A stretch of 58,427 nt of DNA from an uncultured Alphaproteobacteria bacterium. Its GTDB lineage: Bacteria > Pseudomonadota > Alphaproteobacteria > CAAHEQ01 > UBA3637. Positions 32,007 through 54,251 of the stretch are shown one piece after another. The stretch covers positions 1 through 58,427 of the forward strand of contig CALXXA010000002.1 in assembly GCA_944392585.1 (NCBI GenBank), written 5' to 3'. The notes beneath the pieces are model-generated. The model saw nothing but the letters and a program-made list of their open reading frames with translations, was not told where the DNA came from and searched no databases. How positions within the stretch are numbered: position 1 is the stretch's first letter; the number at the start of each line of letters is the position of its first letter. The position numbers were made by a program, and so were the translations under genes.

Positions 32007-32012
32007 GTTCTT

Positions 32013-33791: not shown

Positions 33792-33882
33792 GTTGAGCTC
33801 TCCTAATGTTTAATGTTTTTATATATCAATAAATTAATTTTATCATAAAAAAGATATTTTGTCTATTTCTTTTTGCCCCTTC

Positions 33883-36334: not shown

Positions 36335-36345
36335 ACAGAACAACC

Positions 36346-37602: not shown

Positions 37603-37609
37603 GGGAAAA

Positions 37610-40435
37610 ATGATAAAGAAAACATTCTATCTTCTCATTCTTTTCCTTCTGGTTTTTTTAGCGGCTCATATTAACACTCAGTATTTTCCTTACATTGGAA
37701 TTACCGCTGTTTTTATCATTATCCTGTGCCTTGGATATGCCATTCATAAAACAAAATTATTTTATTATTCTAAAAAAGTTATTGTGTTCTTATTATTTTC
37801 TCTTTCCTTTTTTTACTTAACCTCGGCGTCTCCTGTTCTTGCACAAACATCAGAAACAACTCAGTCTGGGGGAACATTTTTTAAAAGTTTATTTTCTCAA
37901 GATGCAAAGCCATCTTTGGAAGAACAAATTCAAAAAGTTGGAAACGAGTTCCATAAAATATGGCGAATTTTGCCTGAAACCAGGACAGAAGAACAACAAA
38001 AAAAATATGATCAACTCAAGAAGCAATTAGAAAATCTTCTAAAGAAAAAAGCGAAAGAAGATAAAAAAGAAAAAGCAAAAACTCAATGTAAAACACCGCA
38101 TGAACTCTTGAGAGAAGTACAAAACGATTGTTGGTCTTGTGATTTAACTTATATAATTATTGAAGCTATAGATGGCGTCGCCACTTCCTTTTTTAATAAG
38201 GTTCAAGAAAATAACTACGCTTTAATCATCCTGGGTCTTGGATTTGCTTTTTGGTTATTATTCAATATCTTAAAATTTTTCACCTCTTGGCTTTTGACAG
38301 ACTTAGGAGAAGTATGGACAACGATATTTCGAAAACTTATACTCGTTATTTTCGCGGCGGCTCTTCTTATTTCTCCAATACGTCAAGTTTTTGATTGGAT
38401 ATTAACCCCCTTCTTTTCTTTTTCCGCTGCTATCAGTATGGAAATAGCAAACATCTCCACATTTGGGAATAACGTTTCTAAAATTGATGAATCGCTTTCA
38501 AAAACTTTAGAAGTTAACCCTATTGAATGTTCTTACTGCACAGCCATGAAAAAATCAGACGCAGCAGTTCCCTCTCCTAAAAACATAGAGAACGTTGATG
38601 TTCTAAACGCCCCTTCCATTCAAGACAGAGTTTTTTCATCTCAAATAAAAAACTCTATGTTATGTATCGTATGCTCGTTATATCGAACTATCTCGCCTCC
38701 TATTATTATCGGACAATCATTACTATGTTACTCCACTACCGAAGGAGCCTATTCTTTCCCTCCGAAATGGATTATCGGAGTTCCTGTCAGATTACAAATT
38801 CCCAACATGCTGATGTATACAGCGGGAATTGTCATTATTATCGTATTTATTCTTATAACCATTTTATTTCCACTTTTTTTAGTTGATGCCTTCTTTAGAA
38901 TAGGGTATGTTGCGACATTAATGCCCTTTTTGATTGTTGCATACGTTTTTGAATCAACTCGTATATATGCCAAAAATTCATTTAGAATAGTTCTACACGC
39001 TTTAAGCACCTTTTTATTTGTATCGATTATGTTTACTCTGTTGGTTCAAGTATTCTATACATCTTTAAGTTCCGACACACAAGCCATTACAAACGCGCTG
39101 GCCAGCAATGATATAAAAAGCTTATTTAACATATTTGTCCTTAATTCAGGATTTTTCCCTCTTTTAATGTGTATTTTTATTGGTTTTTTAGCCGTAAAAA
39201 TGATGTTTTTAATGGACGAGATAAGTAGTGAGTTAACAGCTATTAACCTGGAGAGCACTGGTGGAATTGGAGCCCTTATATCCGCTATAGATGTTATTAA
39301 ATCCCCAATGCCCGTAGTCAGTGAAATTTATGATGAAACCTGGGGATATGTCGGTTCGAAACGTGTCCCTCTTAACGCTCCGGAACTTCCCAAATATCAC
39401 AGTGCGGAAGCAAAATCTCGCCTTATTCGTTTAAAATCATATCAGAAATTTAACAAATATGCGGACAGCGTTGTTTCCTTCGGAGCCTCTCCGGCTCTTT
39501 CTGTTGAAGAAGAAATTCAAGCCACCGGAAATGTTTTTTCTAATAAAATTTACAATTTTAGAAGATCTATCATTCACAAAATTAATGAAATCGGTAAAAA
39601 TTCCACTGAAGGATTAAAAAGAACTGGGACAGAAATTAATTCTTTATTATCTAATATCTTTGGTCTGAACAATGTTTCTAAGACACCTTATTCCCAAAAC
39701 AAAGATCAAAAAACAAACAAAAAAGTTCAAAATATCTTCAAGCATCAAGGCTCCTCGAATATATTAAATAAAATACTAAACCTTTTTGCTCTCGGTAGTA
39801 ATGTTATCATCCTCCCTTTAATCGTACTAACCAAAACAGTCCAATTTGCTTCTTTACTTTCCGTTAAAGCCTTATTTGGAGTAATTTCCTTTGTGACACG
39901 CAAAGGAACTTATGTAACGCAAAAGACAGCTTCAGCGGCTATATCACTTCCCGGAAGATTAACTGCTTTAGGCCTCCAAAAAGCCGGTAAGTTAATTGCT
40001 CAAAACAAATACTTCACCAAAACAGCCGGAGCTACAAATAGTCTTGTTCTTGGAGCCATCGCCGGGACTGTTTTGGGAATTGCTCATTTCGCCTCCGGAC
40101 TAGGCAGTCTTGTTCCGGGATCCTCTCGTTCCAAAAAAGGTTTTTCTTTGGAAGGGAGAGATTTATCTTCTAAAGAAAATGAACTTCGAGTCGCTCGAAT
40201 TAAATTACAAGATTTGCATGATAAACGCCGCTCTATAGAAGTCAAACGTTATCTCTTGCTCGGTAAAGGGGTCTTATCTGAGAAAGACACTGCGGAATTA
40301 GCGTCAATAGAATCCGATTGGTCTCAAATGCTGAGCGAAATTACTTATTTTGAATCTATTGTAGCTTCTTTAGAATCAGAAGTATCCCACTTAAAAGAAA
40401 ATATTAGAAAACATCACAACGAACAGAAATCTTGA
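37610..40435 (+). CDS. VirB6/TrbL-like polytopic membrane protein, paralogue C, with long N- and C-terminal extensions
   Basis: 941 aa. CWSC at aa 174-177, FAFWLLFNILKF, and FFRIGYVATLMPFLIVAYVFESTRIYAKNSF (compare the VirB6 YIFDRTRDIAAKW region). A C-terminal extension of about 400 aa ends in a coiled coil, an architecture like the enlarged VirB6 paralogues of Rickettsiales. Confidence 0.6.
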   Translation: MIKKTFYLLILFLLVFLAAHINTQYFPYIGITAVFIIILCLGYAIHKTKLFYYSKKVIVFLLFSLSFFYLTSASPVLAQTSETTQSGGTFFKSLFSQDAKPSLEEQIQKVGNEFHKIWRILPETRTEEQQKKYDQLKKQLENLLKKKAKEDKKEKAKTQCKTPHELLREVQNDCWSCDLTYIIIEAIDGVATSFFNKVQENNYALIILGLGFAFWLLFNILKFFTSWLLTDLGEVWTTIFRKLILVIFAAALLISPIRQVFDWILTPFFSFSAAISMEIANISTFGNNVSKIDESLSKTLEVNPIECSYCTAMKKSDAAVPSPKNIENVDVLNAPSIQDRVFSSQIKNSMLCIVCSLYRTISPPIIIGQSLLCYSTTEGAYSFPPKWIIGVPVRLQIPNMLMYTAGIVIIIVFILITILFPLFLVDAFFRIGYVATLMPFLIVAYVFESTRIYAKNSFRIVLHALSTFLFVSIMFTLLVQVFYTSLSSDTQAITNALASNDIKSLFNIFVLNSGFFPLLMCIFIGFLAVKMMFLMDEISSELTAINLESTGGIGALISAIDVIKSPMPVVSEIYDETWGYVGSKRVPLNAPELPKYHSAEAKSRLIRLKSYQKFNKYADSVVSFGASPALSVEEEIQATGNVFSNKIYNFRRSIIHKINEIGKNSTEGLKRTGTEINSLLSNIFGLNNVSKTPYSQNKDQKTNKKVQNIFKHQGSSNILNKILNLFALGSNVIILPLIVLTKTVQFASLLSVKALFGVISFVTRKGTYVTQKTASAAISLPGRLTALGLQKAGKLIAQNKYFTKTAGATNSLVLGAIAGTVLGIAHFASGLGSLVPGSSRSKKGFSLEGRDLSSKENELRVARIKLQDLHDKRRSIEVKRYLLLGKGVLSEKDTAELASIESDWSQMLSEITYFESIVASLESEVSHLKENIRKHHNEQKS

Positions 40436-40464
40436 AAATTACATTTTCAATTAACTCTAACGTT

Positions 40465-40491
40465 CTTTAAAAGAGCTTTCTCCTTTTAAAG
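40465..40491 (+). terminator. weak AT-rich hairpin after the VirB6-like array
   Basis: ctttaaaag (40465-40473) pairs with cttttaaag (40483-40491) around a 9-nt loop, 30 nt after the stop of paralogue C. The stem is AT-rich and the T-run is poor. Confidence 0.3.
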
Positions 40492-40591: not shown

Positions 40592-41563
40592 ATGGAAGAA
40601 ATTATTTTCCCTAATCAAATTCGTATGATTCGCCGAACACGCGGTAAAACGATGAAAGAAATTGCCAGCATTTTGAATGTTAGTTTATCTGCCATCAGCA
40701 AAATAGAAAAAGGATATCGACGTATTGATGATAAACAATTGACACAAATAGCTCAATTTCTAGCATGTCCCAAAGAAAGTATTTTTGTTGTGGAACAAAC
40801 CTCTCAACCGGAAGTCTTACAGGCTTGGCAAAGGGAACAAAACCGGCGGAAACAAATTAATGAAAAAAGTGGTTTAAAGACATTAGGTGCCGGATTAAGG
40901 TACATTCGCGGAGAAAAGATGCTTACATTATATGATGTTTCTAAGAAAGCTGGAATGACTCTTTCCGTATATCATAGAATAGAGATCGGACAACGTGAGG
41001 TTACAGAGGAACAATTAAATAATATTGCTCATGCTTTAGGTTATACTCTAGAAACACTCCAGATAAGAATTTATGAGTTGGACATGGCCGGCTCTTTACA
41101 GGAATTTAAAAAAATAGGGAAATCCGGAATTTTCCACCCTAAAGGAGGATATAATGATCTACCCGTTACTTCTCTCGCTATGCATTTCTATCAACGAATC
41201 CCCGTTATAGGAATATGTGAAACAAACGGAACTGTTATCATTCCAGATCAAACATCTCTCCCACAAATAGAACCTAGTTTCATAAATAAAGAATCTCTTT
41301 ATGGTATTCAAATTAATTCAACCTGTCTTGGCTTCTCATTCCCACAACATCGAACCACTCTTATTGCCGATAAAAGCCAACGCCCATCAGATGGAGATAT
41401 AGCTCTATTTCATAAGGGAACACAATCTATTGCGGTTGGAATATGTAAAAAAGAAAATAATTCAGACATCTTTTTTATTCAGAAGAATCCAGATCGCAAA
41501 ATAAAATTATCCAGATCGGAATTGGAAAAATTAGATAAAGTAACTTATATTCAAATTACGTAG
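40592..41563 (+). CDS. XRE-family regulator with two HTH domains and a C-terminal S24/LexA-like domain lacking an obvious catalytic Ser
   Basis: 323 aa. HTH 1 is IRMIRRTRGKTMKEIASILNVSLSAISKIEKGYR. HTH 2 is LRYIRGEKMLTLYDVSKKAGMTLSVYHRIEIGQR. The C-terminal roughly 130 aa begin IPVIGICETNG and end with a beta-rich region like CI/LexA C-domains, but I see no GDSM-type Ser motif. AAGGAGG RBS. Confidence 0.75.
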   Translation: MEEIIFPNQIRMIRRTRGKTMKEIASILNVSLSAISKIEKGYRRIDDKQLTQIAQFLACPKESIFVVEQTSQPEVLQAWQREQNRRKQINEKSGLKTLGAGLRYIRGEKMLTLYDVSKKAGMTLSVYHRIEIGQREVTEEQLNNIAHALGYTLETLQIRIYELDMAGSLQEFKKIGKSGIFHPKGGYNDLPVTSLAMHFYQRIPVIGICETNGTVIIPDQTSLPQIEPSFINKESLYGIQINSTCLGFSFPQHRTTLIADKSQRPSDGDIALFHKGTQSIAVGICKKENNSDIFFIQKNPDRKIKLSRSELEKLDKVTYIQIT

Positions 41564-41586
41564 CTATAATGGACAAAGGGTAAATA

Positions 41587-42384
41587 ATGGCTGATATTAA
41601 AACATGGAAAAAAGATTTCCTCGCTGAGCGTAAGAAAAAAGAAGAAGCTCCTTCTTCCATTGCTCAACGTTTTATCAATATCTACCGCCAGCTCCCAATC
41701 CTAGGAGAAGAAGCTGTTAAAAAATATAATGACTTATTAATATCACAAACAACCGCAGAAGTTTTAATCGCTCTAACAAACTTACCAGGCGGGGAAGAAA
41801 TCAGAGAGTATATCAATTTTTTAAAACATAAGAATTTAGAAGAAAGAGAAGAACTGGAATCGAGTCAAAAAGCAAACTTATCTCTCCCCAAAGCAGAAGA
41901 ATTATCTCCTTTGTGGGAAACATTGGGAATAAATTCCGTTTCTCATGTAAATGCACAAACGGCCGTCAATGATGTTGTTCAAACTGTTATTTCGATAGGG
42001 AAAAAAGATATTGAAAACCTAAAAAAACAAATTCTTCCTTTTATTCATCGACAAAATGAAGACGTTTCCAACATCTTAAAGTATATCATCGTTGATTCTG
42101 ATATAGAAAAAATGCAACAGACTCTAACCCAGGCTATAAAGAAAATATCTTCCCTTCAAGAAAATAATGAACGCATTTTGAATTCTTTATTTGAACAAGC
42201 GGAAGTTAATCGTCTTTTTTCTCAAGAAGATATAATTTCCTCAAAGGAGAAACAAGAAAATAATATAAATACGCCTAAAAAATCTTCTCCGTCAAAAGCT
42301 GTTTTTACAGCGACAACAAAAAATAAACGGCTTCATCCATTACCAAAATATTCCGTTGATTTAATAGAGGAGGAAGACAGCTGA
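41587..42384 (+). CDS. hypothetical coiled-coil protein
   Basis: 265 aa, Glu/Lys-rich helical, starting 23 nt after the regulator gene. No family recognised. Confidence 0.5.
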   Translation: MADIKTWKKDFLAERKKKEEAPSSIAQRFINIYRQLPILGEEAVKKYNDLLISQTTAEVLIALTNLPGGEEIREYINFLKHKNLEEREELESSQKANLSLPKAEELSPLWETLGINSVSHVNAQTAVNDVVQTVISIGKKDIENLKKQILPFIHRQNEDVSNILKYIIVDSDIEKMQQTLTQAIKKISSLQENNERILNSLFEQAEVNRLFSQEDIISSKEKQENNINTPKKSSPSKAVFTATTKNKRLHPLPKYSVDLIEEEDS

Positions 42385-42445
42385 TTTTAAGCAATCATTA
42401 ACCTTCTTATTTTATATATAAATATAGTTTTTATGTGAGGAAAAA

Positions 42446-43951
42446 ATGCCAACCCAGGAACAACTAAAACCACTAATAGAAGCTTTAACAGCATACAAAC
42501 AAGATCAACAAACGTTACAACCTGTCGTAGATACGGCTTTGACTATTTATGGGCAAGATTGGACAACTGCTTTAGCAAACGATCTAGAAAATTTACAAAA
42601 CGTTGACACGACAACCTTAACATTTTTAAAAGAAAAAGCAAATCATGCTATTTATTACTATGGAGCCCTGACTGCTTGGGAAGAGGCTCATCATTACTTA
42701 AATTCAACAAATCCTATTGATCCAAACTTATTAAAAGAACGCTTGCCTATTTTAGAATATTGGTTATCTTTATTCGGAGATGAAGGAAACAAGGTAAATG
42801 GAAAATTAAAGCAACTTTTTGTTAATATTTCTCCTGTACAACCGGGGGAAACTTCTTCACTGTCTTCCGAAACATTGAAGGGGGATTCGGATATCTCTGC
42901 AGACAATCAAGAGACTTCCTCTATTCAACAACTACATAATGACCGATCCGAAGTAGAACCGGTTGCGGAAATGACATCTTCTTTTGAAACCTCTGACAGT
43001 TCTTCCCCCGCCGTGAAATTAGAGGAGAAAGAATCCTTACCCCAAAGCTCCCTTTCGGAGGAGTCCGCTCCTTTTTATCCAGCAAATATTTCCGAAGATA
43101 CTCGTTTAAGTGAAGAAGATATACTAGAAGCAACCGCTTATTCTTCACAACCTGAATTGGGAAATATAGAAAATCAAGAAGAAAATACAAGTTTTCCAGT
43201 CCAAGAAGAACCGGATTCGGAATATCCGCTAGAAGAACAAAATACTTCTTTTAACGAAACAGAACCTTTAGAAGATGAGTTGATAGAAACGTCTGAACAG
43301 CCGACAGTTTCTGTTCCAGAAATCGTTCAGGAAGATCTAAATGTGGTTCCATCGCAAGAGATATCCGAAAAAGGAGATTCTTCAAAGAATTGGGAAATAA
43401 ATAATTATTTAAAAGAAAAAGAACTATATGAACAAGTTGTCGCATGGGTTACGGCGAAATGTATTCGCATGGGAAATATTGAATTAACAGCCTATCCACA
43501 TTATGGTTTTATTGTCGATTTAATGCAATCTTTAAAAGAGAATATCCAAAATTTATTAAGCAACCCACTACTTACCGAGATTATAGAAACACAGTTAAAA
43601 GAAGGTCGTAAAGGATTAGAAGGTTTTTTAAAAGTTCTTGAAACGGAATTAGCACACTTACCCGAGATAGAGAGTCAACCTTCGGATGCGATTATAGAAG
43701 GAATAGATGCGCGCTCTATTCTAGGGCAAATAGACACCAGCAATAAAAAAGAATATTTAGGTCCGGCTCCAGATGGATTTGAGTTGATTGAGGATCCTTA
43801 TGAGAAAAAAGAAGATATCGCCAAAGAAGATCTCTTAAAAGCATATGAAAAAGCCGAAGAAGATACGGGAGATTCAATAAACCATTTAAATATTCTGGAA
43901 GAAGAAACTTCACAATCTCAAGAAACCCAAACAACACCACGGAAAGGATAA
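42446..43951 (+). CDS. hypothetical highly acidic protein
   Basis: 501 aa. The central roughly 200 aa are extremely Glu/Ser/Pro-rich and look disordered, flanked by helical N- and C-terminal domains. No signal peptide seen. Confidence 0.5.
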   Translation: MPTQEQLKPLIEALTAYKQDQQTLQPVVDTALTIYGQDWTTALANDLENLQNVDTTTLTFLKEKANHAIYYYGALTAWEEAHHYLNSTNPIDPNLLKERLPILEYWLSLFGDEGNKVNGKLKQLFVNISPVQPGETSSLSSETLKGDSDISADNQETSSIQQLHNDRSEVEPVAEMTSSFETSDSSSPAVKLEEKESLPQSSLSEESAPFYPANISEDTRLSEEDILEATAYSSQPELGNIENQEENTSFPVQEEPDSEYPLEEQNTSFNETEPLEDELIETSEQPTVSVPEIVQEDLNVVPSQEISEKGDSSKNWEINNYLKEKELYEQVVAWVTAKCIRMGNIELTAYPHYGFIVDLMQSLKENIQNLLSNPLLTEIIETQLKEGRKGLEGFLKVLETELAHLPEIESQPSDAIIEGIDARSILGQIDTSNKKEYLGPAPDGFELIEDPYEKKEDIAKEDLLKAYEKAEEDTGDSINHLNILEEETSQSQETQTTPRKG

Positions 43952-43956
43952 ACAGA

Positions 43957-45450
43957 ATGCATATGAGATATATTTTAATGACTTGCATTTTAGCTTCTAC
44001 AAGTCTCGCTTTATTAGCGTGTCAACATCGAACAGCATCTTTACCTTATATGACAAAGGCTTCTTATATATCCTCTCCGGATTTTTCGAAGTCTGAAACA
44101 GGATTTTTATCGTCTCCGAGTTTAGAAAAACAAAACCCACTTCAAACTTCATCATCTTTTTATACTCCGCAAAGAAATTCTTCATACAAAGGAGTAAATA
44201 ATGCGGGAATAGTTCCTGTTATTAAGGGGAAAGAAGATTCGATCCATCCGCAAGGAGAGAATAATTATTATAGCTCACGACAGACTCGGTCGGCAGAGTT
44301 AACGCCTCAGGATATAAGAACGTCGCCACAAAAGCAGCTGCCTTGCACTCAATCGAAAGTTCCCCCTATGTTGCAAGGACAAACTTCAACGGACATGGTT
44401 AATATAGAAACGCCAATGCGCTGTCGTGTTCCGGAGCCGACATCTCGCATTATTTCAGATATTCCTTTAACACAGGGAGATTTTGAACTGACTCGAGTAG
44501 AAGAAAATGATGCTCTGCCACGTTATGAAGTCAATGGATATACCTTTGATAATCAACCTTTAGATATGGCGATTCAAGTTCTTGTATCCGAAGCAGATAT
44601 AAATGTCTATTCAGATGATGGCTTATTTCCCGATATGTCGGCACAAGATATCAGAGGAGAATTATCAGCTGTTATAGAAGAACTGACAGATTCGGCAGAT
44701 GCCTATGCTCATTATGACGCGAGTAAAAAAAGGTTGTATTTGTCTCACTGGGCTCGGTTTAGATTAAAAGTCCCCGGAGGATATATAGGAATGTATGCAG
44801 TTTTAGACGCCTTAAGAGGAGCTAATATTACGAACGTACAACCTGATTGGGGACAAAATGAACTTTATTTCCGTGTGACGAAATCACAAGAAGCCATTAT
44901 TCGCCGTTTAATTTCTTATTTGAAAGAAGATCCTCGTCTTTTAATGCTTGACATAAACGTTTATAAAGTTTACCCCAAAGGGGGTGCAAATATCTCATGG
45001 AGAAACGTTATTCAAAGCTTCGGAGATTATAAAGTGAATATGTCCATAAACGGTCTGCAAGGACGAATGATTATAACCGATCATCAAGAAGAGCAAAATT
45101 CATTTTTAAATAATCTAAAAGCATACGCTCAAGTTGATTTAGTTTCAAAAGGCGTCGCTGTTATGCCTAACGGATGGAAAGTTCGTTTTGACATAGGTCA
45201 GTGTTCATTTACAAACACTCCAGAAAAAGATTTATCTCTGCTATTACAGAGCAAAATACAAAGCACAGACCGCATAGAATCGAACATTGCGTTAGATACA
45301 GTGAATGGAGAAGTAACATCTTTTTACTCATTTTACAGTATAGATGATGATTTAAATATTGTCGGTATCCCCGGCACAGTTTTCAATCAAAGCACCGTCA
45401 TAGAGTATTTCATTACGATGAAACCTCGGATTATGCGTCTTATAAAATAA
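43957..45450 (+). CDS. outer-membrane lipoprotein with secretin-like N0 and C-terminal domains (type IVb PilN/BfpB/TcpC-style)
   Basis: 497 aa. Lipobox SLALLAC and a disordered Ser/Pro/Gln linker. FDNQPLDMAIQVLVSEADINVYSDD...LSAVIEELTDSADAYAHYDASKKRLYL resembles a secretin N0/NolW-like domain. LMLDINVYKVYPKGGANISW ... FLNNLKAYAQVDLVSKGVAVMPNGWKVRFDIGQ ... NIVGIPGTVFNQSTVIEYFITMKPRIM follows the order of the secretin-domain consensus. Recognition is by eye only. Confidence 0.5.
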   Translation: MHMRYILMTCILASTSLALLACQHRTASLPYMTKASYISSPDFSKSETGFLSSPSLEKQNPLQTSSSFYTPQRNSSYKGVNNAGIVPVIKGKEDSIHPQGENNYYSSRQTRSAELTPQDIRTSPQKQLPCTQSKVPPMLQGQTSTDMVNIETPMRCRVPEPTSRIISDIPLTQGDFELTRVEENDALPRYEVNGYTFDNQPLDMAIQVLVSEADINVYSDDGLFPDMSAQDIRGELSAVIEELTDSADAYAHYDASKKRLYLSHWARFRLKVPGGYIGMYAVLDALRGANITNVQPDWGQNELYFRVTKSQEAIIRRLISYLKEDPRLLMLDINVYKVYPKGGANISWRNVIQSFGDYKVNMSINGLQGRMIITDHQEEQNSFLNNLKAYAQVDLVSKGVAVMPNGWKVRFDIGQCSFTNTPEKDLSLLLQSKIQSTDRIESNIALDTVNGEVTSFYSFYSIDDDLNIVGIPGTVFNQSTVIEYFITMKPRIMRLIK

Positions 45451-45466
45451 AATAAAAGGGAAAGAA

Positions 45467-46138
45467 ATGACTATAGAAAAGAAACCTATATTAAAAGCAC
45501 CGATGCCTCCTTCTGGAATAAAGTCTCCGGCGGAAGCGAAGATATCCGCCTATACTCCAAGCATGAAAACAAATTCATTACCGAATGAAGTTGCATCAGG
45601 GAATCCGGGACAAAATACATCTATGCCACAACCTTCGTATGGATTAAGGGGAGAAGATTCTTCTGGGAATAAGCCGGAGAATTTTTCAAAGAATCAATTG
45701 ACGGAGGAACAACCCTCTGTATCGCCCGGTTCTGGTCTATATGATAATAATTTTGCGGCTCAATTTAATTTACCGCCCTCTATATTGACGACCAAAGCGA
45801 TGAGTTTTATTCTTGCGGGAGTATTCTTTTTTGGGATTATATTTGGAGCGAATGTTTTCGGAACCAGTACAACGACACATGGTCTACAAGGAGTTATTTT
45901 GAATCCTGGAGTTCCAGAAGGAAGGAAGCGCTGTGGGATAGCCGAAAAGACAGAAGGATGTGTTTTATTTATGATGAATGCATCACAACGGGACAGAGAA
46001 GTTCGTTCATTTTATGAACAAGCAGCGGCGATAACGAATGTTCCGGCGTATACCATAGAAATGGGAAATATCACATATGCGTCAACAATTATTCGTCCTG
46101 GCTATTTTGCACAAATAAATATTCCTCCGATACGGTAA
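45467..46138 (+). CDS. bitopic membrane protein (disordered N-terminus, one TM helix, about 90-aa C-terminal domain)
   Basis: 223 aa. Single TM helix MSFILAGVFFFGIIFGANVF. It starts 16 nt after the secretin-like gene and is the last gene of that operon. Confidence 0.45.
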   Translation: MTIEKKPILKAPMPPSGIKSPAEAKISAYTPSMKTNSLPNEVASGNPGQNTSMPQPSYGLRGEDSSGNKPENFSKNQLTEEQPSVSPGSGLYDNNFAAQFNLPPSILTTKAMSFILAGVFFFGIIFGANVFGTSTTTHGLQGVILNPGVPEGRKRCGIAEKTEGCVLFMMNASQRDREVRSFYEQAAAITNVPAYTIEMGNITYASTIIRPGYFAQINIPPIR

Positions 46139-46160
46139 CGCATTATATTTTAAGATAAAA

Positions 46161-46196
46161 AAAAATATAATCTCTTTAAAAAGAGATTATATTTTT
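46161..46196. terminator. bidirectional terminator between convergent operons
   Basis: aaaaatataatctc (46161-46174) pairs with gagattatattttt (46183-46196) around an 8-nt loop. An A-run flanks one side and a T-run the other. Confidence 0.65.
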
Positions 46197-46227
46197 ATGG
46201 ATATAGGCTTCAAATTATTAACTTTTA

Positions 46228-46983
46228 TTACTCACTGGTAAATTTGCGACAAAATGCCTTACCTTCTGAAACAATCTTGAAACGCTGCGGATAACATACC
46301 TCGGCGGTTACACCATTACCGCCTGCCATTTCAAATAAGCGTAAACCTTCACACTTCAATAAAGATTCTTTTCTTTTTGACCAATCACACTCTTTTTTCG
46401 CAACATCCGTGTTCCCCAAATTCTTTTCACACGAAGAACTTTCCTGCCCATCGATCTTCTTCTTCTCATAGTAAGAAGGCCTCTCGGCCTCATGAGCACA
46501 CCTACAAAAAGGCAAGTTATATCTCGTTACATTTTGTCCACTTCCTTCACAATCCCAACCATCCTCATTATATCCTTTTATATTAAAACACGTCTCATTC
46601 TCCATAGAAAAATCCGGGGTAGCCGTAAATTTTATCTCTAAATAACCTGTTCCAAGCGGATCGGCCGTTACAATCCCTCCATTATTTATATCGTCAAAGG
46701 GGAACGCAAGCAAATTGTCCCTATTACCTTTCGCCCATTCTTCCACATCATGTTTATAAATCTTATGGATTAAATCTGGAGTTATCTCATCTGCCGTTAA
46801 CAATTTTGCACCAAAAGAATTACACCATGATGCTCTGTTTTTCGCATCTAAACTTATTGTGCTTACATAATAGATATAACCATCTATTTCTGCTGTTTTA
46901 TATGCAAGTACACCATTATTATCTGCAAGTACACCATTATTATAAGAAAAGAACAAAAGTATCAGTAAAAATATTTTTCGCAT
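46228..46983 (-). CDS. secreted Cys-containing protein with lectin-like W-C-x3-G motif
   Basis: 251 aa. Signal peptide MRKIFLLILLFFSY and 10 Cys. IDGYIYYVSTISLDAKNRASWCNSFGAKLLTADE resembles IGGYVEEGKYIRSDIMLNWWSAGAWCLANGKKWASIGD in the C-terminus of the 709-aa pilin-like protein. GGGAGG RBS lies 18 nt after the stop of the 955-aa gene, so the two are probably co-transcribed. Confidence 0.55.
   Translation of the reverse strand: MRKIFLLILLFFSYNNGVLADNNGVLAYKTAEIDGYIYYVSTISLDAKNRASWCNSFGAKLLTADEITPDLIHKIYKHDVEEWAKGNRDNLLAFPFDDINNGGIVTADPLGTGYLEIKFTATPDFSMENETCFNIKGYNEDGWDCEGSGQNVTRYNLPFCRCAHEAERPSYYEKKKIDGQESSSCEKNLGNTDVAKKECDWSKRKESLLKCEGLRLFEMAGGNGVTAEVCYPQRFKIVSEGKAFCRKFTSE
46903..46944 (-). 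repeat. 21-bp tandem duplication in the 5' coding region of the 251-aa gene
   Basis: (a/c)tgcaagtacaccattattat occurs twice in tandem (46903-46923 and 46924-46944). It encodes NNGVLAD-NNGVLAY directly after the signal-peptide hydrophobic core. Confidence 0.9.
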
Positions 46984-47001
46984 ATTTTGCCTCCCACGGC
47001 T

Positions 47002-49869
47002 TTAATAATTATTAGTTTGATTCACACATTTCCCCACAAACTTCATTTGCTTGCCTTCATTTTTCATGATAAATCCCTTTGCCAAAGATGCTATACTACA
47101 TACTTGCCCTTCATTACACTTGGTGTCGGAATCATCTCCTAAAGTTACCTTTGATTCACCATCCTCCTTATCCGTACCAATGGTAAGGTTTTTTAAATTA
47201 TCCTCATTCTCATTCACATCTGCCCACTTTCCTATATAAAGAAGTCCGCTAGAATTTTTAGTCGGGGAATCTTCCCCAAAATACGCTGCAAGAGTCTTGA
47301 CAAGATAACAAAATTTTAGGGGTTTGCTTTTCGCTGCTAGTTGAGCTTTTGCTTTTTCTTCTCCACTCGCCCTTATCGAGAAAGAATTACTCGGGCTTCC
47401 CCATCGTACACATTGTTGTGGGAATGGGTCTTTGAAGTATGTATTAGTCGAGCAATAACATCCTACACCCGGACATTCACTAAAAAAGAACTCTCGATAA
47501 CACTCACCAGCTGCATCAAGACTACATTCTTTTTCTGCTGGATAATACCAGGGTACATTCGTTTCCTTCCCACAAGCTACTCCGATATTGTTTTCATGGT
47601 ACCCTTCTCTATACTGTAAACACGCTGGATAATAACCGCTCTTCTGTGTATTATACACATCGTCGTACGTAGTCTTCTTTAGGTTACTAATTCCGCCATT
47701 AATGGCAGATATACAATAACCCAAATCCGTCGGTATAGTCACGGTTAAAGTACAATCATAATCTCCGGAAGCCTCTTCTAAACAAACTTGACTTTCATCA
47801 TCCCAATAATATCCTGATTTCGTACAACAGCTATCTGTGTTATAATATATCATTTCTTCAGAACAACATTTATTTTCACCAGGTATCCATGTTCCTCCTG
47901 CCTCTATACACCCGTCTTGAGTAGTTATTGACGTACACCCCTCTTTTTCCGACCATTTTCCCCCGGTTTTAGAACAACACGCATTTGTATTCGTCTCAAT
48001 TAATGACGGGGTACAACATTGATTTGACGCACCAATCCAAATTCCTCCCAAAGCAGAACAATCCTCTTCATTATCAGGAATATCAGTATCCAAATCAAAA
48101 CTACATCTCTGATCTAGATTAGGTTTGTCACAACATATAGTCTCTTCTTCTCCAGTATCTGTATCTTGAACAACTTTAGTTATTGTACAACACTCCCCAT
48201 CAACAACACCTGTCGCAGTAGAAGGACAACATGTTCCATTAATAACATTTTTCCTGTCAGCAGGGCAACAAACAATGTCACTATCAACGATTACAGGCTC
48301 TGTATCTTTTTCACAGCACTTAAAATTTTCTTCATTAATAAACGCCCAATTTCTACCCGCCGCCTCACAACATTCTTCTTTCTTCTCAATAGTACTTTCT
48401 TCCGAAAGAGTCTCATAATCTTTCGGACAACAATAGTTGTTCACAGCTTGATTCAGGTTTTGATTCAGGTTACAGCACATATTGTCTTTGCTTGTAAAAA
48501 CATACTCAGAACTGTTGATACAACACATTCCATTAGCATCGTCTGTTTTAACCATTGTCACCTTATCAACCCATACGCCTTTCTCATGCCCATCATAAGC
48601 GTTTTCACAACAAACCTGTGTATTTATGTTGCTCGGATCACAACATTGTTCACCCACCCAATGATAACCATTCGCTTCACAACACATTCCATTAGCATCG
48701 TCTGTTTTAACCATTGTCACCTTATTAACCCAATGATGCTTATTCGCTTCACAACATGCCTTTGAATCCGTTTTCCAAGTTTTATTATCATTTGTACAAC
48801 ACTCTCCATTTTTAATAAACTCACTATGGCAACAAAAAACTTGATTTCCTGATCCTGAAGGCTGATCGCCTTTATTACAACAAATCCCCTCATCATTAAA
48901 CCATTCATACAACCCTATACAACACATTCCATTAGCACCGTCTGTTTTAACCCCATCCTCATCGACCCAATGATAATTATTCGCTTCACAACATGCCTTA
49001 GTATCTGTGTCGTCCTTAGCACAACATGTCCCCTCAGCCCATACGCCTCCGTTTGCTTTACAACATGCCTTAGTATCTGTGTCGGCCTTAGCACAACATA
49101 TTCCATTAGCATCGTCTGTTTCAACCCCATTCTCATCAACCCAAGAACCTGCCTCATCATGCCCATTATAGGTGTTTTCACAACAAACCTGTGTAGTTAT
49201 GTTGTTCGGATAACAACATTGTTCACCCACAGCATAGCTACCCTCCGGACACTCAGAAGGAGGATCAATAGGATCAATAGGAACAATAGGATCAGGATTC
49301 GGTGTCGTAGGATCCGGGAAAAGATCCGAAACCGATGTATCATACGCAAAAACAAATGTATTCCTCTTTCCTTCCGAACACTCTGTAACTGTAAGAGATC
49401 CCGTACACTCTGAAATCCCTTTATCCCCTTGACATAAAAAAACTTCTCTTTTTATCGGAAATTCTTCTCTAACCATCTCTTGCAACCTCTTGCAAGCTCG
49501 ACCGGGAACTTCCTTAACTATAACATAAAATCTATTCCCTTTCCCCTTCTCATGCGCATAGTTAAAACCTCCTTGGTTCTCTTTGAAACCAACCAAATTA
49601 TACTTTTCCCCTGTCTCATAATTCTTCAAAGCCGGATTACTAAACGATTCCACGGCTCTTAAATCCACTTGCTTATATATCTGATTCGCTTGGTGCTTGG
49701 ACATCGCATATGCATATGCAACCAAAAAAAGAATACTCAATATCGCTACAACAGCTAAAACACCTAATATCTCTATAATGCTCCGCCCTTTTTCCGACTT
49801 GACAAAATGTCTCTTAAAATATGATAAATGACGATTCTGTTCCAATTTTTCCTTCAAATGTCTAAGCAT
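47002..49869 (-). CDS. giant Cys-Cys-repeat protein with type IV prepilin-like N-terminus (paralogue 1)
   Basis: 955 aa. A 28-aa basic leader ends in Gly, then RSIIE (Glu at +5) and a roughly 22-aa hydrophobic helix (ILGVLAVVAILSILFLVAYAYA), which is a class III/prepilin signal. There follow a small pilin-like domain, the Pro-rich linker PDPTTPNPDPIVPIDPIDPP, about 490 aa holding 27 CC dipeptides, and a unique roughly 265-aa C-terminal domain. AGGAGG RBS. Confidence 0.7.
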   Translation of the reverse strand: MLRHLKEKLEQNRHLSYFKRHFVKSEKGRSIIEILGVLAVVAILSILFLVAYAYAMSKHQANQIYKQVDLRAVESFSNPALKNYETGEKYNLVGFKENQGGFNYAHEKGKGNRFYVIVKEVPGRACKRLQEMVREEFPIKREVFLCQGDKGISECTGSLTVTECSEGKRNTFVFAYDTSVSDLFPDPTTPNPDPIVPIDPIDPPSECPEGSYAVGEQCCYPNNITTQVCCENTYNGHDEAGSWVDENGVETDDANGICCAKADTDTKACCKANGGVWAEGTCCAKDDTDTKACCEANNYHWVDEDGVKTDGANGMCCIGLYEWFNDEGICCNKGDQPSGSGNQVFCCHSEFIKNGECCTNDNKTWKTDSKACCEANKHHWVNKVTMVKTDDANGMCCEANGYHWVGEQCCDPSNINTQVCCENAYDGHEKGVWVDKVTMVKTDDANGMCCINSSEYVFTSKDNMCCNLNQNLNQAVNNYCCPKDYETLSEESTIEKKEECCEAAGRNWAFINEENFKCCEKDTEPVIVDSDIVCCPADRKNVINGTCCPSTATGVVDGECCTITKVVQDTDTGEEETICCDKPNLDQRCSFDLDTDIPDNEEDCSALGGIWIGASNQCCTPSLIETNTNACCSKTGGKWSEKEGCTSITTQDGCIEAGGTWIPGENKCCSEEMIYYNTDSCCTKSGYYWDDESQVCLEEASGDYDCTLTVTIPTDLGYCISAINGGISNLKKTTYDDVYNTQKSGYYPACLQYREGYHENNIGVACGKETNVPWYYPAEKECSLDAAGECYREFFFSECPGVGCYCSTNTYFKDPFPQQCVRWGSPSNSFSIRASGEEKAKAQLAAKSKPLKFCYLVKTLAAYFGEDSPTKNSSGLLYIGKWADVNENEDNLKNLTIGTDKEDGESKVTLGDDSDTKCNEGQVCSIASLAKGFIMKNEGKQMKFVGKCVNQTNNY
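48125..48838 (-). repeat. segment shared with the second pilin-like gene (copy in paralogue 1)
   Basis: 48125-48565 aligns by eye to 55618-56067 with about ten substitutions, one 3-nt indel and one 6-nt indel. 48725-48838 continues the match to 56068-56180. Paralogue 1 carries one extra unit of about 159 nt in between. Confidence 0.85.
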
Positions 49870-49980
49870 TCAAGCCTCCTATATTTACACCTATTGTACA
49901 ACATACACCATATTTCCATCCAGATGTCAAGCAATTTTAAAAAAAAATTCACTTTTACAATTCACAATAAACTATGAATT

Positions 49981-50022
49981 TAAAAAGAAAGAGAAGGTTT
50001 TAAAGACCTTCTCTTTTTTTTC
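49981..50022. terminator. rho-independent terminator downstream of tuf (copy 1)
   Basis: aaagagaaggt (49988-49998) pairs with accttctcttt (50006-50016) around a 7-nt loop. T-runs lie on both strands. It is 31 nt past the tuf stop. Confidence 0.8.
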
Positions 50023-50097
50023 TAAGTTATCTTGAAATAATTTTAGGTTACTTCAATATCTTGGAGACAACTCCAGCACCAACCGTGTGACCCCCTT
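49981..50097 (-). repeat. direct repeat copy 1: tuf 3' end plus terminator
   Basis: Identical base for base to 58311-58427 (offset 8330 nt). The match runs to the window edge, so its full length is unknown. Confidence 0.95.
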
Positions 50098-51238
50098 CCC
50101 TGATCGCAAACCTTAGTCCTTCATCCATCGCTACAGGAACTATCAACTTCACCGTCATCTTCACATTGTCTCCGGGCATCACCATCTCTACTCCCTCAGG
50201 CAACTCTATCGTCCCCGTCACATCCGTCGTCCGAAAGTAAAATTGAGGCCGGTAATTACTGAAAAATGGCGTATGACGTCCTCCTTCCTCTTTCGTCAAT
50301 ATATAACATTCCGCCGTAAACTCCGTATGCGGCGTTATCGTCCCAGGTGCCGCCAATACTTGGCCCCTCTCGACTTCTTCCCTCTTCGTGCCTCTCAATA
50401 ATACTCCAACATTGTCCCCGGCTTCCCCTTGGTCCAATAACTTCCGGAACATCTCTATCCCTGTACACGTCGTCTTCTGCGTCGGCCTTAAACCTACTAT
50501 CTCTACTTCATCTCCAACCTTTATTACTCCTCTCTCTATACGTCCCGTCACTACCGTCCCTCGTCCCGATATGCTAAAAACATCTTCTATCGGCATCAAA
50601 TACGGCTTGTCCTTCGGACGATCCGGTTGCGGAATATATCTATCAACCTCTTCCATCAACTTCACTATCGTATCATGCCCTATCTCCGGACGCGTCCCTT
50701 CCAATGCACATAACGCTGAACCTTTCACTATCGGTATCTCATCCCCAGGAAATTGATATGAACTCAATAAATCCCTAACTTCCATCTCTACCAATTCCAA
50801 TAACTCTGGATCATCTACCTGATCAACCTTGTTCATATATACTACCAACGCAGGAACTCCTACCTGCCTCGCTAACAATATATGCTCCCGCGTCTGCGGC
50901 ATCGGACCATCCGCCGCACTCACTACCAATATCGCTCCATCCATCTGCGCCGCACCAGTTATCATGTTCTTTACATAATCCGCGTGACCAGGACAGTCTA
51001 CATGCGCATAATGCCTATTCTTCGTCTCATACTCTACATGCGACGTGCTTATCGTTATCCCTCGCGCCCTCTCCTCTGGCGCCTTATCTATGTTCGCATA
51101 ATCTACAAACGAGGCTCCTCCCTGCTCCGACAATACTTTCGTTATCGCTGCCGTCAACGTCGTCTTCCCATGATCAACATGTCCTATCGTCCCTATGTTG
51201 CAATGGGGTTTAATCCTCTCAAACTTTTCTTTTGCCAT
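50048..51238 (-). CDS. tuf: elongation factor Tu
   Basis: 396 aa. Canonical EF-Tu ([25 protein letters not shown]). Confidence 0.97.
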
Positions 51239-51299
51239 CTCTCTATCTTCCTTCTCAAAAAAATGCTGCTCCTCTTAAAAGAAGAGCAGCTTATTTTAA

Positions 51300-53378: not shown

Positions 53379-53396
53379 AACCTAAAATCCCCCTAT

Positions 53397-53867
53397 TTAC
53401 CACTTATAATGAGAGAACGCTTTATTCGCTTCGGCCATTTTATGAACATCTTCGCGTTTACGAATAGCATTTCCCCTATTATTAAAAGCATCCATTAATT
53501 CGCCAAATAATTTTTCTTCCATTGTTTTCTCGGAACGTTTTCTGGCTGCCTCTATAATCCACCGAATAGCCAAAGCTTGTCTGCGATCCGGACGAACTTC
53601 AACAGGCACCTGATAAGTTGCCCCGCCCACTCTGCGAGATTTGACTTCAACCACAGGCTTAACATTTTCCAATGCATTATGGAAAATTTCCAATCCATTT
53701 TGCTTTGATTTTTCTTCTAACCTGGCGATAGCGCCATAAACGATGCGTTCAGCTGTACATTTTTGGCCTCGCATCATAACACTATTCATAAACTTAGCGA
53801 CAACTTTATCTCCGAATTTAGCATCCGGATTAATTTCGCGTTTTTCTGCTGCGTGTCTACGTGACAT
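53397..53867 (-). CDS. rpsG: 30S ribosomal protein S7
   Basis: 156 aa. [12 protein letters not shown]...[11 protein letters not shown] is the canonical S7 sequence. Confidence 0.97.
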
Positions 53868-53879
53868 TTTTTACTCCTT

Positions 53880-54251
53880 CTATTTAGGCCGTTTCGCTCC
53901 GTACAAGGATCTGGCTTGCTTACGATTAGCAACCCCTTGAGTATCCAACGTACCGCGAATAATATGATAACGAACACCGGGCAAGTCCTTGACACGTCCG
54001 CCACGAATCAGGACGACGCTATGTTCTTGAAGGTTATGACCTTCCCCCGGGATATAACTGGTAACTTCAAAGCCATTTGTCAAACGAACACGTGCGACTT
54101 TACGCAAAGCGGAGTTTGGTTTCTTTGGCGTTGTAGTATACACACGCGTGCAAACGCCTCTCTTTTGAGGACAAGCCTGCAACGCCGGAACTTTATTTCT
54201 TTTAACAGAAGCTTTTCTAGGCTTTCTGGTTAACTGATTAATAGTAGGCAT
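53880..54251 (-). CDS. rpsL: 30S ribosomal protein S12
   Basis: 123 aa. [12 protein letters not shown]...[16 protein letters not shown] is the canonical S12 sequence. Confidence 0.97.

Follow-up and report, generated by a model that had tools for sequence, protein, structure and literature searches.

What kind of machine is encoded where two operons converge, one carrying a secretin-like lipoprotein and the other a giant pilin-like protein, with no pilus motor beside them? A sequence-only reading of this stretch of DNA (58,427 nucleotides, here called the window) had proposed a surface-display system, possibly a reduced or novel one. Our analysis partly supports the interpretation of the locus as a surface-display system; rather than a wholly new machine, it looks like a pilus-type system of known kind in an unusual form. 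The interval consists of two separable units, most likely feeding one pathway. Unit 1 (40592-46138, forward strand) is an autonomous, clade-conserved operon, and unit 2 (46228-49869, reverse strand) is a fast-evolving operon for a giant, modular pilin of type IVb-like character together with a lectin-like protein exported by Sec. The host is an uncultured gut alphaproteobacterium; its host-associated alphaproteobacterial origin, already suspected, was supported by GcrA being encoded in the window (Pfam scan) and by the relatives being gut, rumen or rectum MAGs.

Layout of the locus

An ORF check of the window recovered all seven previously described ORFs, their positions and the 18-nt gap between the two leftward genes being unchanged (Table 1). 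The seven are genuine genes rather than chance ORFs. Six of them have homologues elsewhere; the 251-aa protein has a shared motif only. The bidirectional terminator proposed between the operons was likewise recovered as a perfect 16-bp stem with an A-run on one flank and a T-run on the other, folding at -18.7 kcal/mol (z -4.35) with 0 of 200 shuffles being as stable. The promoter region of the pilin operon lies downstream of the tuf terminator (49988-50016, terminator scan) and holds a TTGACA-like box and, at 49875-49880, a perfect AGGAGG ribosome-binding site 5 nt before the ATG. No operator motif common to both operon promoters was found.

Table 1. Features of the locus and its surroundings in window coordinates.
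Feature	Position	Strand	Remarks
Three tandem VirB6/TrbL-like polytopic paralogues	34631-40435	+	567, 418, 941 aa; directly upstream of the five-gene block
Regulator	40592-41563	+	First gene of block; two Cro/C1-type HTH domains
Soluble 265-aa protein	41587-42384	+	Second gene of block
Very acidic soluble 501-aa protein	42446-43951	+	
Secretin, highly diverged and compact	43957-45450	+	497 aa; lipoprotein
Bitopic 223-aa protein	45467-46138	+	Fifth gene of block
Bidirectional intrinsic terminator	46161-46196	.	Common to both converging operons
Secreted Cys-rich 251-aa protein	46228-46983	-	Start lies 18 nt beyond the stop codon of the 955-aa pilin gene
Giant modular type IVb-like pilin (predicted)	47002-49869	-	955 aa
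Promoter region and RBS of pilin operon	49870-49945	-	Sequence read
Paralogous modular pilin (predicted)	54633-56762	-	709 aa; G|RSMLE; 5 kb from locus

A diverged secretin and its partner genes

The 497-aa protein carries a signal peptide and a lipobox (LALLAC) and is a secretin by fold and by profile, too diverged for standard profiles. The original secretin call failed against Pfam and NCBIfam, and PDB sequences gave no match, but it passed a fold search, a transitive profile search and hhalign. The AlphaFold model, built with a 36-sequence alignment, reached pLDDT >90 over most of residues 165-497, with residues 18-151 being predicted as disordered. N0/N1-type ring-building domains occupy ~165-340, and a shortened secretin domain follows at ~340-497. 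All 23 Foldseek matches at E<=0.001 were secretins, including PilQ (1.2e-9), BfpB (6.4e-9), InvG, GspD, XcpQ, and pIV; the top structural match was the competence-pilus PilQ of V. cholerae, and BfpB, a type IVb lipoprotein secretin, showed the highest query-normalized TM-score among these matches. A transitive search with the family profile found PF00263 in nine out of ten reached proteins tested, and hhalign of the family against a canonical PF00263 secretin gave a probability of 96.9% (E 1.7e-10, 331 columns). Among its distant relatives by sequence is a fusion of a secretin with TcpQ. The protein is predicted to form an outer-membrane channel.

Its partners in the block are less easily placed. 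The double-HTH regulator anticipated at the head of the operon matches HTH_3 in two stretches (Pfam E 6e-22), and its C-terminal domain of ~150 aa is without family match. It represents the best-conserved block member, with 39-78% identity over 31 species (tblastn) and at least 46% where the gene is complete. The 265-aa protein, in which no hydrophobic segment was found, combines a conserved N-terminal domain of ~100 aa with an acidic C-terminal tail (EEEDS). Pfam scans of 29 homologues returned no recurring family, and in distant relatives the homologue measures 390-880 aa while keeping its position in the block. The 501-aa protein is as acidic as described (pI 4.2; 100 Asp+Glu vs 35 Lys+Arg), invariant alignment columns delimiting conserved domains at ~1-125 and ~310-486 with a variable acidic linker between them; its family profile found no match in PDB or Pfam. 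For the 223-aa protein, the bitopic assignment agrees with a single hydrophobic segment at residues 106-134, giving a predicted topology of a Pro/Gln-rich cytoplasmic N-terminus, this transmembrane segment, and a periplasmic domain of ~85 aa. C156 and C165 are invariant in an alignment of 31 homologues, and searches against PDB and Pfam, including TcpQ, yielded no match. Because its gene always lies immediately 3' of the secretin gene, the 223-aa protein is a candidate secretin partner joining the inner membrane to the channel; its periplasmic domain is the probable docking point that holds the secretin to the inner membrane.

A giant modular pilin and its secreted neighbor

Both the prepilin-like start and the CC-repeats noted earlier in the 955-aa protein stood up to scrutiny. 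The N-terminus consists of a 27-aa leader with Gly-1, the motif G|RSIIE with Arg+1 and Glu+5, and a hydrophobic alpha1 helix. The globular pilin domain that follows spans ~150 aa and is joined by a Pro-rich linker to di-Cys (galaxin-like) repeats extending over ~450 aa; the C-terminal ~300 aa form a Cys-rich domain. The protein has 78 Cys and 27 Cys-Cys pairs in total. Galaxin_repeat scored 27.5 bits, below the Pfam cutoff of 28. The AlphaFold model (pLDDT 85.6) shows a helix at 31-77 and then a beta-sheet, i.e., a "lollipop" layout; Foldseek with the pilin-domain model returned no significant pilin match (best E 0.024). The family profile matched 714 proteins, some annotated as Bundlin/PilS. 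Profiles scored within the family are PilS, Bundlin, TcpA, and N_methyl; the last of these matches 31 of 40 members, and the 955-aa protein itself escapes it. Within the class III motif, G, R, S, and E are nearly invariant across the family. The leaders comprise 20-27 aa, a length typical for type IVb pilins; Arg+1 is atypical among prepilin peptidase substrates. The 955-aa protein reads as a putative adhesin-like, type IVb-like pilin, a call that holds under deep searches only. An ENA variant of it measures 1035 aa, and many small pilins exist in the same family.

A paralogous modular pilin in the window, missed by the earlier reading, has the same pilin domain and shares with the 955-aa gene an internal segment of 461 nt at 95% identity. 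The two differ at the C-terminus, where the paralogue bears the lectin-like motif NWWSAGAWCLANG; the C-terminal modules of the paralogous pilins vary and recombine.

The 251-aa protein has a signal-like N-terminus and 10 Cys, and found no match in Pfam, NCBIfam, or PDB. It holds a short module, ASWCNSFGAKLLTADE, which is also found C-terminally in family pilins (BLASTP E 0.005 against the C-terminal module of the pilin P0053, in a small database). In the relative L011, a 119-aa secreted protein with this module, there as NWWSAANWCKANG, occupies the equivalent position. The motif resembles that of C-type lectins, but profile searches lent this no support.

Genomic neighborhood and alternative functions

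Synteny analysis by tblastn showed that the gene order of the five-gene block is kept in 31 gut/rumen alphaproteobacterial species. The pilin operon adjoins it in three genomes only (the window, L011, and L002), which contradicts the proposal of nine genes forming one co-occurring unit. In these three, the modular pilin converges on the secretin block, and in L011 it comes with a lectin-like secreted neighbor as in the window; other genes of the pilin family are scattered singly. Alternatively, the block might serve another type-4-filament function, as a T2SS-like exporter or a competence pseudopilus of small pilins, with the modular-pilin operon as a chance or hitch-hiking neighbor. The top structural match to a competence-pilus PilQ, the absence of the pilin operon beside the block in most species, the paralogous pilin lacking a secretin link, and the many small pilins of the family would agree with this. 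We nevertheless consider it improbable in view of the immediate convergent adjacency in three species whose secretins are 54-64% identical; moreover, no ComEA, ComEC, or GspC-M was seen in the loci (precomputed Pfam for some contigs; ORF inspection).

A type IV secretion setting, also overlooked before, became apparent on both sides of the block. In the window, the upstream VirB6-like trio is tied together by shared motifs, and TrbL PF04610 matches 11 of 42 members of this family (best E 2.3e-6). Three to five such paralogues precede the block in 13 of the 23 species with upstream sequence, including lineages with a secretin only ~37% identical to that of the window. Downstream, VirB11-VirB10-VirB9 converge on the block with no gene between in five species, which places the secretin block sandwiched in a secretion-system island; VirB10 in relatives is giant (2262-2409 aa). 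The window itself contains the VirB6-like part only of these genes. Overall, the secretin block correlates with VirB6 genes at least as well as with pilin genes, and VirB11 is the only T2SSE-family ATPase found nearby. The block might accordingly be an accessory or outer-membrane module of a VirB-type T4SS, the pilin-like proteins being unrelated, membrane-anchored or separately exported adhesins. This appears unlikely to us: to our knowledge no type IV secretion system employs a secretin, the outer-membrane complex already being formed by VirB7/9/10; in 10 species the block stands alone, surrounded for 5-10 kb by housekeeping genes and lacking any VirB gene over that distance; and in both structure and sequence, its secretin comes closest to those of pili, T2SS, and T3SS.

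The missing motor

The reported lack of PilB, PilC, and PilD genes was reproduced, as no T2SSE, T2SSF, or Peptidase_A24 domain was detected by Pfam in window ORFs of at least 100 aa other than EF-Tu, EF-G, S12, and short ORFs overlapping longer ones. Across the 31 species, VirB11 is the only T2SSE ATPase to occur less than 10 kb from the block; in ~817 kb of related loci, neither motor nor platform genes turned up near the secretin block or any pilin gene, and no assembly genes adjoin family pilin genes in ~9 further independent contexts. A single A24 peptidase was found in these 817 kb, in L002, where it separates the block from VirB11. A display system, reduced or novel, that dispenses with its own PilB/PilC motor and perhaps relies on VirB11 and VirB6, or has the secretin only as a passive portal, would match this absence, the unusually short secretin, and the invariant Arg+1 suggesting atypical processing, but it is unlikely, and a less likely branch than a motor encoded elsewhere: the absence spans just 10 kb either side of each locus rather than whole genomes, one relative possesses an A24 peptidase, distant assembly genes are unsurprising because the pilin genes are scattered, and we know of no type-4 filament assembling without its ATPase and platform.

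Proposed pathway and comparison with known systems

We favor, with roughly even confidence, that the locus encodes components of a pathway for a type IVb-like filament and adhesin, with its motor elsewhere, in a T4SS neighborhood, much as for the IncI1 R64 thin pilus. Against this reading stands that the window encodes neither an ATPase of PilB/GspE type nor a PilC/GspF platform nor a peptidase. The lack of T2SSE ATPases other than VirB11 near the block, the single A24 peptidase in the related loci, Arg+1, pilin adjacency in only three genomes, the VirB6 correlation, the missing common operator, the best pilin E-value in Foldseek, and pilin genes never lying beside assembly genes were also counted against it. 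According to the favored pathway, pilins of the multi-copy family insert in the inner membrane via their class III signal; they would then be cleaved after Gly-1 by an A24 prepilin peptidase and polymerized into a type-4 filament by an ATPase and a platform whose genes lie in another part of the genome. The filament would exit via the secretin, and its modular pilins would serve adhesion by exposing their Cys-rich and lectin-like modules on its tip or surface, with the 251-aa secreted protein as a possible pilus-associated partner comparable with CofJ and TcpF. That these pilins couple physically to the secretin of the block is an inference, as are the roles of the 223-aa and 251-aa proteins. 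From the place of the unit among VirB-type genes, the filament may help to hold target cells for the T4SS, as does the R64 thin pilus.

As type IVb comparators served EPEC Bfp (BfpB/BfpG, bundlin), V. cholerae Tcp (TcpC/TcpQ, TcpA), and the Pil systems of IncI1 R64 and S. Typhi (PilN secretin, PilS pilin, PilV adhesin). Common to these and our locus are the lipoprotein secretin, its model matching BfpB, the secretin relative fused to TcpQ, long pilin leaders in a family scoring Bundlin, PilS, and TcpA, and a small partner gene directly 3' of the gene for the secretin. The thin-pilus genes of R64 adjoin type IV secretion genes, and the C-termini of the PilV adhesin are variable, resembling the recombining pilin modules here. 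Unlike in type IVb systems, neither the operon nor its surroundings hold ATPase, platform, and peptidase genes, pilin genes lie scattered outside it, PF00263 misses the secretin, whose secretin domain is shortened, the 265-, 501-, and 223-aa proteins lack detectable similarity to Bfp, Tcp, and Pil proteins, and the +1 residue is an invariant Arg. ETEC CofJ and V. cholerae TcpF are, like the 251-aa protein, small Sec-signal proteins encoded with a large minor-pilin-like gene, a pairing kept in L011; the likeness is one of gene arrangement alone, with no sequence similarity.

The VirB6 arrays presumably resemble the Rickettsiales-type (rvh) VirB/D4 T4SS with its multiplied VirB6: tandem arrays of three to five enlarged VirB6/TrbL-like genes, the VirB9-VirB10-VirB11 order in relatives, and a host-associated alphaproteobacterium encoding ankyrin-repeat proteins are shared features. 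The secretin operon between the VirB6 array and VirB9-11 and the giant VirB10, both in relatives, and the restriction of the window to the VirB6-like part differ from rvh.

Modular pilins are an established class of adhesins, exemplified by S. sanguinis PilB (vWA) and PilC (lectin) and by ETEC CofB, in which lectin-type modules recur and a location at the filament tip is expected (Raynaud et al. 2021, PMC8179133). The pilins described here share the N-terminal pilin module with grafted C-terminal binding modules. They differ by di-Cys galaxin-like repeats and uncharacterized Cys-rich domains, modules absent from domain databases, and by Arg+1 and, in the 955-aa protein, the escape from N_methyl. 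With 955-1035 aa, the giant pilin exceeds the 860-residue pilin from Falkowbacteria, which the same survey (PMC8179133) cites as its most extreme multi-domain example.

Gene layout and the convergence of two operons

The window is a low-GC (~35%) chromosomal stretch that also encodes GcrA, DNA polymerase I, GroEL and the rpsL-rpsG-fusA-tuf operon, and every open reading frame named in the sequence-only reading was recovered at its position. Genes of the secretin operon are tightly spaced, with gaps of 23, 61, 5 and 16 nt, and the 955-aa and 251-aa genes of the opposing pilin operon lie 18 nt apart. The two operons meet at a hairpin whose 16-bp stem is perfect and bordered by runs of A and T (z-score -4.35; none of 200 shuffles folds as well). 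The 955-aa gene is served by a separate AGGAGG site and promoter-like box, both situated downstream of the tuf terminator. A search for an operator shared by the upstream regions of both operons and of the 709-aa pilin paralogue returned only AT-rich k-mers and gave no evidence of co-regulation; one 11-mer is common to the upstream regions of both pilin genes. Scanning the window for Rfam families and tRNA genes returned nothing.

The gap between the VirB6-like array and the regulator gene contains an inverted repeat (TCTTTAAAAG...CTTTTAAAGA) with a T-rich stretch behind it; this element could separate the transcription units of the array and the secretin operon. Three more orphan genes diverge from the VirB6-like array; the 216-aa gene among them holds the same position in five loci from related genomes (L006, L011, L032, L037 and L039; L numbers denote such loci throughout), and it may therefore belong to the same neighborhood. 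The two ankyrin-repeat proteins encoded in the window are consistent with a host-associated lifestyle.

Positions of the features discussed, in the window and in loci of related genomes
Feature	Sequence	Position	Strand	Product (aa)
Ankyrin-repeat protein	window	2081-3103	-	
Three orphan genes	window	30960-34533	-	348, 592, 216
VirB6-like array	window	34631-40435	+	567, 418, 941
Inverted repeat	window	40457-40490		
Secretin operon (double-HTH regulator, 265-aa, 501-aa acidic, secretin, 223-aa bitopic)	window	40592-46138	+	secretin 497
Secreted protein of the pilin operon	window	46228-46983	-	251
21-nt tandem duplication	window	46903-46943		
Modular pilin of the pilin operon	window	47002-49869	-	955
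rpsL-rpsG-fusA-tuf operon	window	50048-54251		
Modular pilin paralogue	window	54633-56762	-	709
Ankyrin-repeat protein	window	56891-58201	-	
Variant of the 955-aa gene	L001	13046-16153		1035
Giant VirB10	L002	20812 onward		
Giant VirB10	L006	13050-19850	-	
Family pilin adjoining tuf	L010	11321-11447		
Small family pilin and EGF-like protein	L047	10001-10840		121, 147

A diverged secretin family

The 497-aa product carries a signal peptide and a lipobox and had been read as a secretin-like lipoprotein. Direct searches did not bear this assignment out: the protein has no Pfam or NCBIfam match (E<=0.1) and no PDB-sequence match, none of its 40 clear homologues carries a precomputed Pfam domain, and a 36-sequence profile of the family retrieved no secretin from PDB sequences. 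The assignment was nevertheless upheld by deep profile search, profile-profile alignment and structural comparison. Searching 1.84 billion proteins with the family profile retrieved 146 proteins, 61 of which represent the family proper, followed by a weaker tail in which nine out of ten sampled proteins contain PF00263 above cutoff, one such protein being a TcpQ fusion. Alignment of the family with one canonical secretin from this tail by hhalign (96.9% probability, E 1.7e-10, 331 columns) paired query residues 159-495 with residues 58-472, covering the N-domains and the whole secretin domain, with the query side being the shorter.

The structural evidence, here as for the pilin described below, consists of predicted models. 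The AlphaFold model based on the 36-sequence alignment reached pLDDT >90 for most of residues 165-497, with residues 18-151 disordered, and shows the ring-building N0/N1 domains followed by the secretin beta-domain. All 23 Foldseek matches in the PDB at E<=0.001 are secretins, including V. cholerae PilQ (1.2e-9) and BfpB (6.4e-9) as well as InvG, ExeD, XcpQ, GspD, PulD and pIV; N0-N1-N2 fragments (XcpQ, GspD) and chains comprising the secretin domain only (InvG 6pee, pIV 7ofh) were matched separately. The TM-scores are low (0.11-0.29), which we attribute to setting a single modelled monomer against protomers cut out of ring assemblies. As judged by profile and predicted model, the 497-aa protein is a true secretin, very diverged and compact. 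Profiles of the 223-, 501- and 265-aa families matched nothing in PDB or Pfam, and a specific comparison of the 223-aa protein with a TcpQ-bearing secretin was negative.

Conservation of the secretin operon and its type IV secretion neighborhood

When one genome per species was scanned, a single secretin sequence retrieved no locus, whereas the alignment-based query returned 31, all of them on MAG contigs. All but two are labelled uncultured Alphaproteobacteria, and the sources, where recorded, are gut, rumen or rectum (human, rabbit, yak, sheep, buffalo and roe deer). The two exceptions, L014 (CAZXTR010000003.1, “Lactobacillales bacterium”) and L023 (CAVDQP010000017.1, “Holdemanella biformis”), are probably mis-binned contigs, i.e., bin contamination in public MAGs.

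The order regulator, 265-aa, 501-aa, secretin and 223-aa gene is kept wherever the contig allows, at secretin identities down to 33%. Upstream, 13 out of the 23 loci with enough sequence encode three to five paralogues of the 567/418/941-aa membrane proteins and the other 10 encode none, such counts varying with the extent of each contig. In the window, these proteins are VirB6/TrbL-like polytopic membrane paralogues in tandem. The sole recurrent Pfam family among them is TrbL (PF04610), present in 11 of 42 family members with a best E of 2.3e-6; the three window copies themselves do not reach E 0.1 for it. They have in common a conserved C-W/F-x-C motif that precedes their first transmembrane segment, as well as the motif FPxxLIDxLIRLGFV; the 418-aa copy has a lipobox, and L024 carries five copies.

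VirB9, VirB10 and VirB11 are absent from the window. On the downstream side of the block in five other species (L006/L013, L012, L015, L016 and L017), VirB11-VirB10-VirB9 genes converge directly on the 223-aa gene; in L002 a distance of 8 kb, which includes a Peptidase_A24 gene, separates them from the block. Among NCBIfam matches, VirB11 TIGR02788 is the best (E 7e-39, below cutoff). Several relatives (L002, L006, L012 and L015-L017) encode a giant VirB10 of 2262-2409 aa, in which ~1900 aa of Gly/Val-rich repeats precede the TrbI domain. The secretin operon is anciently, not universally, tied to VirB6 arrays, and in the most distant relatives it stands alone among housekeeping genes.

A modular pilin converging directly on the block was seen only in the window, in L011 (with a secreted lectin-like neighbor) and in L002, and in L025 a 995-aa pilin is located 6 kb from the block. 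The nine genes once taken as a single surface-display locus do not hold together as a unit; they comprise a conserved secretin operon and a variable pilin operon drawn from a dispersed family.

A pilin family with a nearly invariant arginine

The 955-aa protein starts with a 27-residue charged leader, followed by G/RSIIE and a hydrophobic helix (the slash separates residues -1 and +1). It reads ...KSEKG/RSIIEILGVLAVVAILSILFL, and the 709-aa paralogue reads ...ADTG/RSMLEVLAVLAIIGILS. A class III signal is evident from the charged leader, Gly-1, Glu+5 and a hydrophobic alpha1N of ~20 residues. Across 40 family members, G-1 (G28), R+1, S+2 (S30) and E+5 (E33) are nearly invariant. The near-invariance of Arg+1 (>=90%) is unusual, the N-methylated +1 residue commonly being Phe in type IVa and Met, Leu or Val in type IVb pilins.

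The sequence-only reading had described this protein as prepilin-like, which the motif and the family profile support; the fold comparison gave no significant match. When the 955-aa N-terminus was the sole query of a word-index homology search, all matches came from the same organism. Using a three-sequence profile of the two window paralogues and the L002 homologue, 714 proteins were retrieved, among them many with precomputed Bundlin (PF05307) or PilS (PF08805) domains and some named PilE or GspH. Within the 40 aligned members, N_methyl (PF07963/TIGR02532) was found in 31, PilS in seven, Bundlin in four and TcpA in one; the window's 955-aa N-terminus itself has no N_methyl, PilS or Bundlin match even at E<=1. 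The AlphaFold model of the pilin domain (pLDDT 85.6) predicts a 47-residue helix (31-77), then four strands and a short helix. Its best Foldseek match in the PDB (E 0.024) is not significant, and CofB appears only at E ~1.

Behind the pilin module follow a Pro-rich linker, a stretch of ~450 aa that contains 27 Cys-Cys pairs, and finally a C-terminal domain, Cys-rich and without any match. Residues 310-411 gave a Galaxin_repeat (PF24748) score of 27.5 bits, the cutoff being 28.0 (E 3.3e-6); together with HTH domains, this sub-threshold repeat was all that direct Pfam, NCBIfam and PDB-sequence searches returned for the seven proteins of the two operons. Based on this architecture of pilin module, linker, Cys repeats and C-terminal domain, the 955-aa protein is placed among the modular pilins, a class that is both diverse and established (PMC8179133).

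The second protein of the pilin operon, 251 aa long with 10 Cys, starts with a signal-like sequence, and searches of Pfam, NCBIfam and PDB sequences returned no match for it. Its residues 33-70 resemble the C-terminal module of one family pilin (P0053). A clearer form of the module, NWWSA..WC.ANG, occurs in the 709-aa paralogue and in a 119-aa secreted protein of L011 that occupies the same position as the window's 251-aa protein. The short motif W-x-S-A-x-x-W-C-x-A-x-G is the only link between the 251-aa protein and the pilin C-termini. Since it recurs in pilins and in the L011 protein, the proposed lectin-like motif represents a real shared module of putative lectin character; neither the 251-aa protein nor the pilin C-termini matched a lectin domain in Pfam, NCBIfam or PDB sequences. 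A perfect 21-nt tandem duplication in the N-terminal region of the 251-aa protein gives NNGVLAD-NNGVLAY.

A proposed filament pathway and its rivals

The most economical reading is that both operons supply parts of one type IVb-like filament pathway. An A24 peptidase would process the pilins, an ATPase and a platform protein encoded elsewhere would polymerize them, the pilins would pass through the secretin of the block, and the Cys-rich and lectin-like modules would be displayed by the giant members. What the comparisons directly show is the synteny pattern and the identity of the regulator, the secretin, the VirB6-like genes and the pilin family; that these pilins use this secretin, and which roles the 223-, 251-, 265- and 501-aa proteins might play, we infer.

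The type IV secretion genes next to these pilus-type parts are reminiscent of IncI1 R64, whose thin pilus, of type IVb and equipped with variable PilV adhesins, assists the secretion system of the plasmid. That the secretin operon repeatedly lies with VirB6 arrays on one side and VirB9-11 on the other prompts the question whether a pilus-type channel cooperates with a chromosomal type IV secretion system, comparable to the IncI thin pilus.

A first rival attaches the secretin to a type IV secretion system instead.

A second rival, a motor-less or hybrid system, touches on the absence of motor genes, which was confirmed for the window: no T2SSE, T2SSF or Peptidase_A24 was present in the scanned open reading frames of >=100 aa. 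In the related loci, 817 kb in total, all T2SSE-family ATPases were VirB11 orthologues, the only A24 peptidase was the one in L002, and no cluster united pilin, secretin, ATPase, platform and peptidase as in the Bfp, Tcp, Cof or R64 Pil systems. In its explicit form, the secretin, the bitopic protein and two soluble proteins would, without a PilB/PilC motor, be joined to the VirB6 paralogues/VirB11 in a hybrid that extrudes or displays Arg+1 pilins via the secretin, which we regard as improbable.

A third rival would give the secretin an unrelated use of the type II secretion or competence type. A filamentous-prophage origin, evoked by the pIV-like secretin and the Cro/C1 regulator, was rejected because the block keeps one chromosomal order throughout the 31 species; on inspection, its neighbors included nothing that looked phage-like.

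Each component, whether secretin, type IVb-like pilin or modular pilin, is of a known kind. New are a secretin family that current profiles do not cover and that comes with four uncharacterized partner genes as a fixed set, an Arg+1 pilin family including modular members of 955-1035 aa, and a chromosomal setting in which VirB6 arrays lie on one side and VirB9-11 on the other. Literature on the clade yielded nothing relevant. Pfam and NCBIfam fail to detect this secretin family, which is conserved in no fewer than 31 uncultured alphaproteobacterial species of gut and rumen, and current annotation therefore misses secretin-dependent systems of this clade.

Variation and scatter of the pilin genes

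Besides its unusual, nearly invariant Arg+1, the clade's large pilin family comprises modular pilins that rank among the largest seen and whose Cys-rich and lectin-like modules recombine; they are plausible determinants of host or cell adhesion in a poorly known member of the animal gut microbiota. The pilin-domain DNA of the two window paralogues is ~73% identical, compared with 95% for a 461-nt internal repeat segment, which in turn is 97.6% identical in an ENA variant. This mosaic structure suggests gene conversion between the paralogues, i.e., adhesin variation. The variant of the 955-aa gene in ENA ERZ28613582 (scaffold_5740) contains one extra 80-aa repeat block and several residues as in the 709-aa paralogue. 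The length difference reflects either repeat-number polymorphism or assembly collapse, and repeat and mosaic differences between assemblies may generally include assembly artefacts.

Approximately nine further pilin-gene contexts were inspected, in which the gene occurs singly, as a tandem pair or in a small cluster among housekeeping genes, with no assembly genes adjacent. In L047, a small family pilin is directly followed by an EGF-like Cys-rich protein, a pair that may represent a “split” version of the modular pilin architecture. The rpsL-rpsG-fusA-tuf operon of the window has modular pilin genes on both flanks, and a family pilin adjoins tuf also in the unrelated MAG GCA_022766425.1 (L010).
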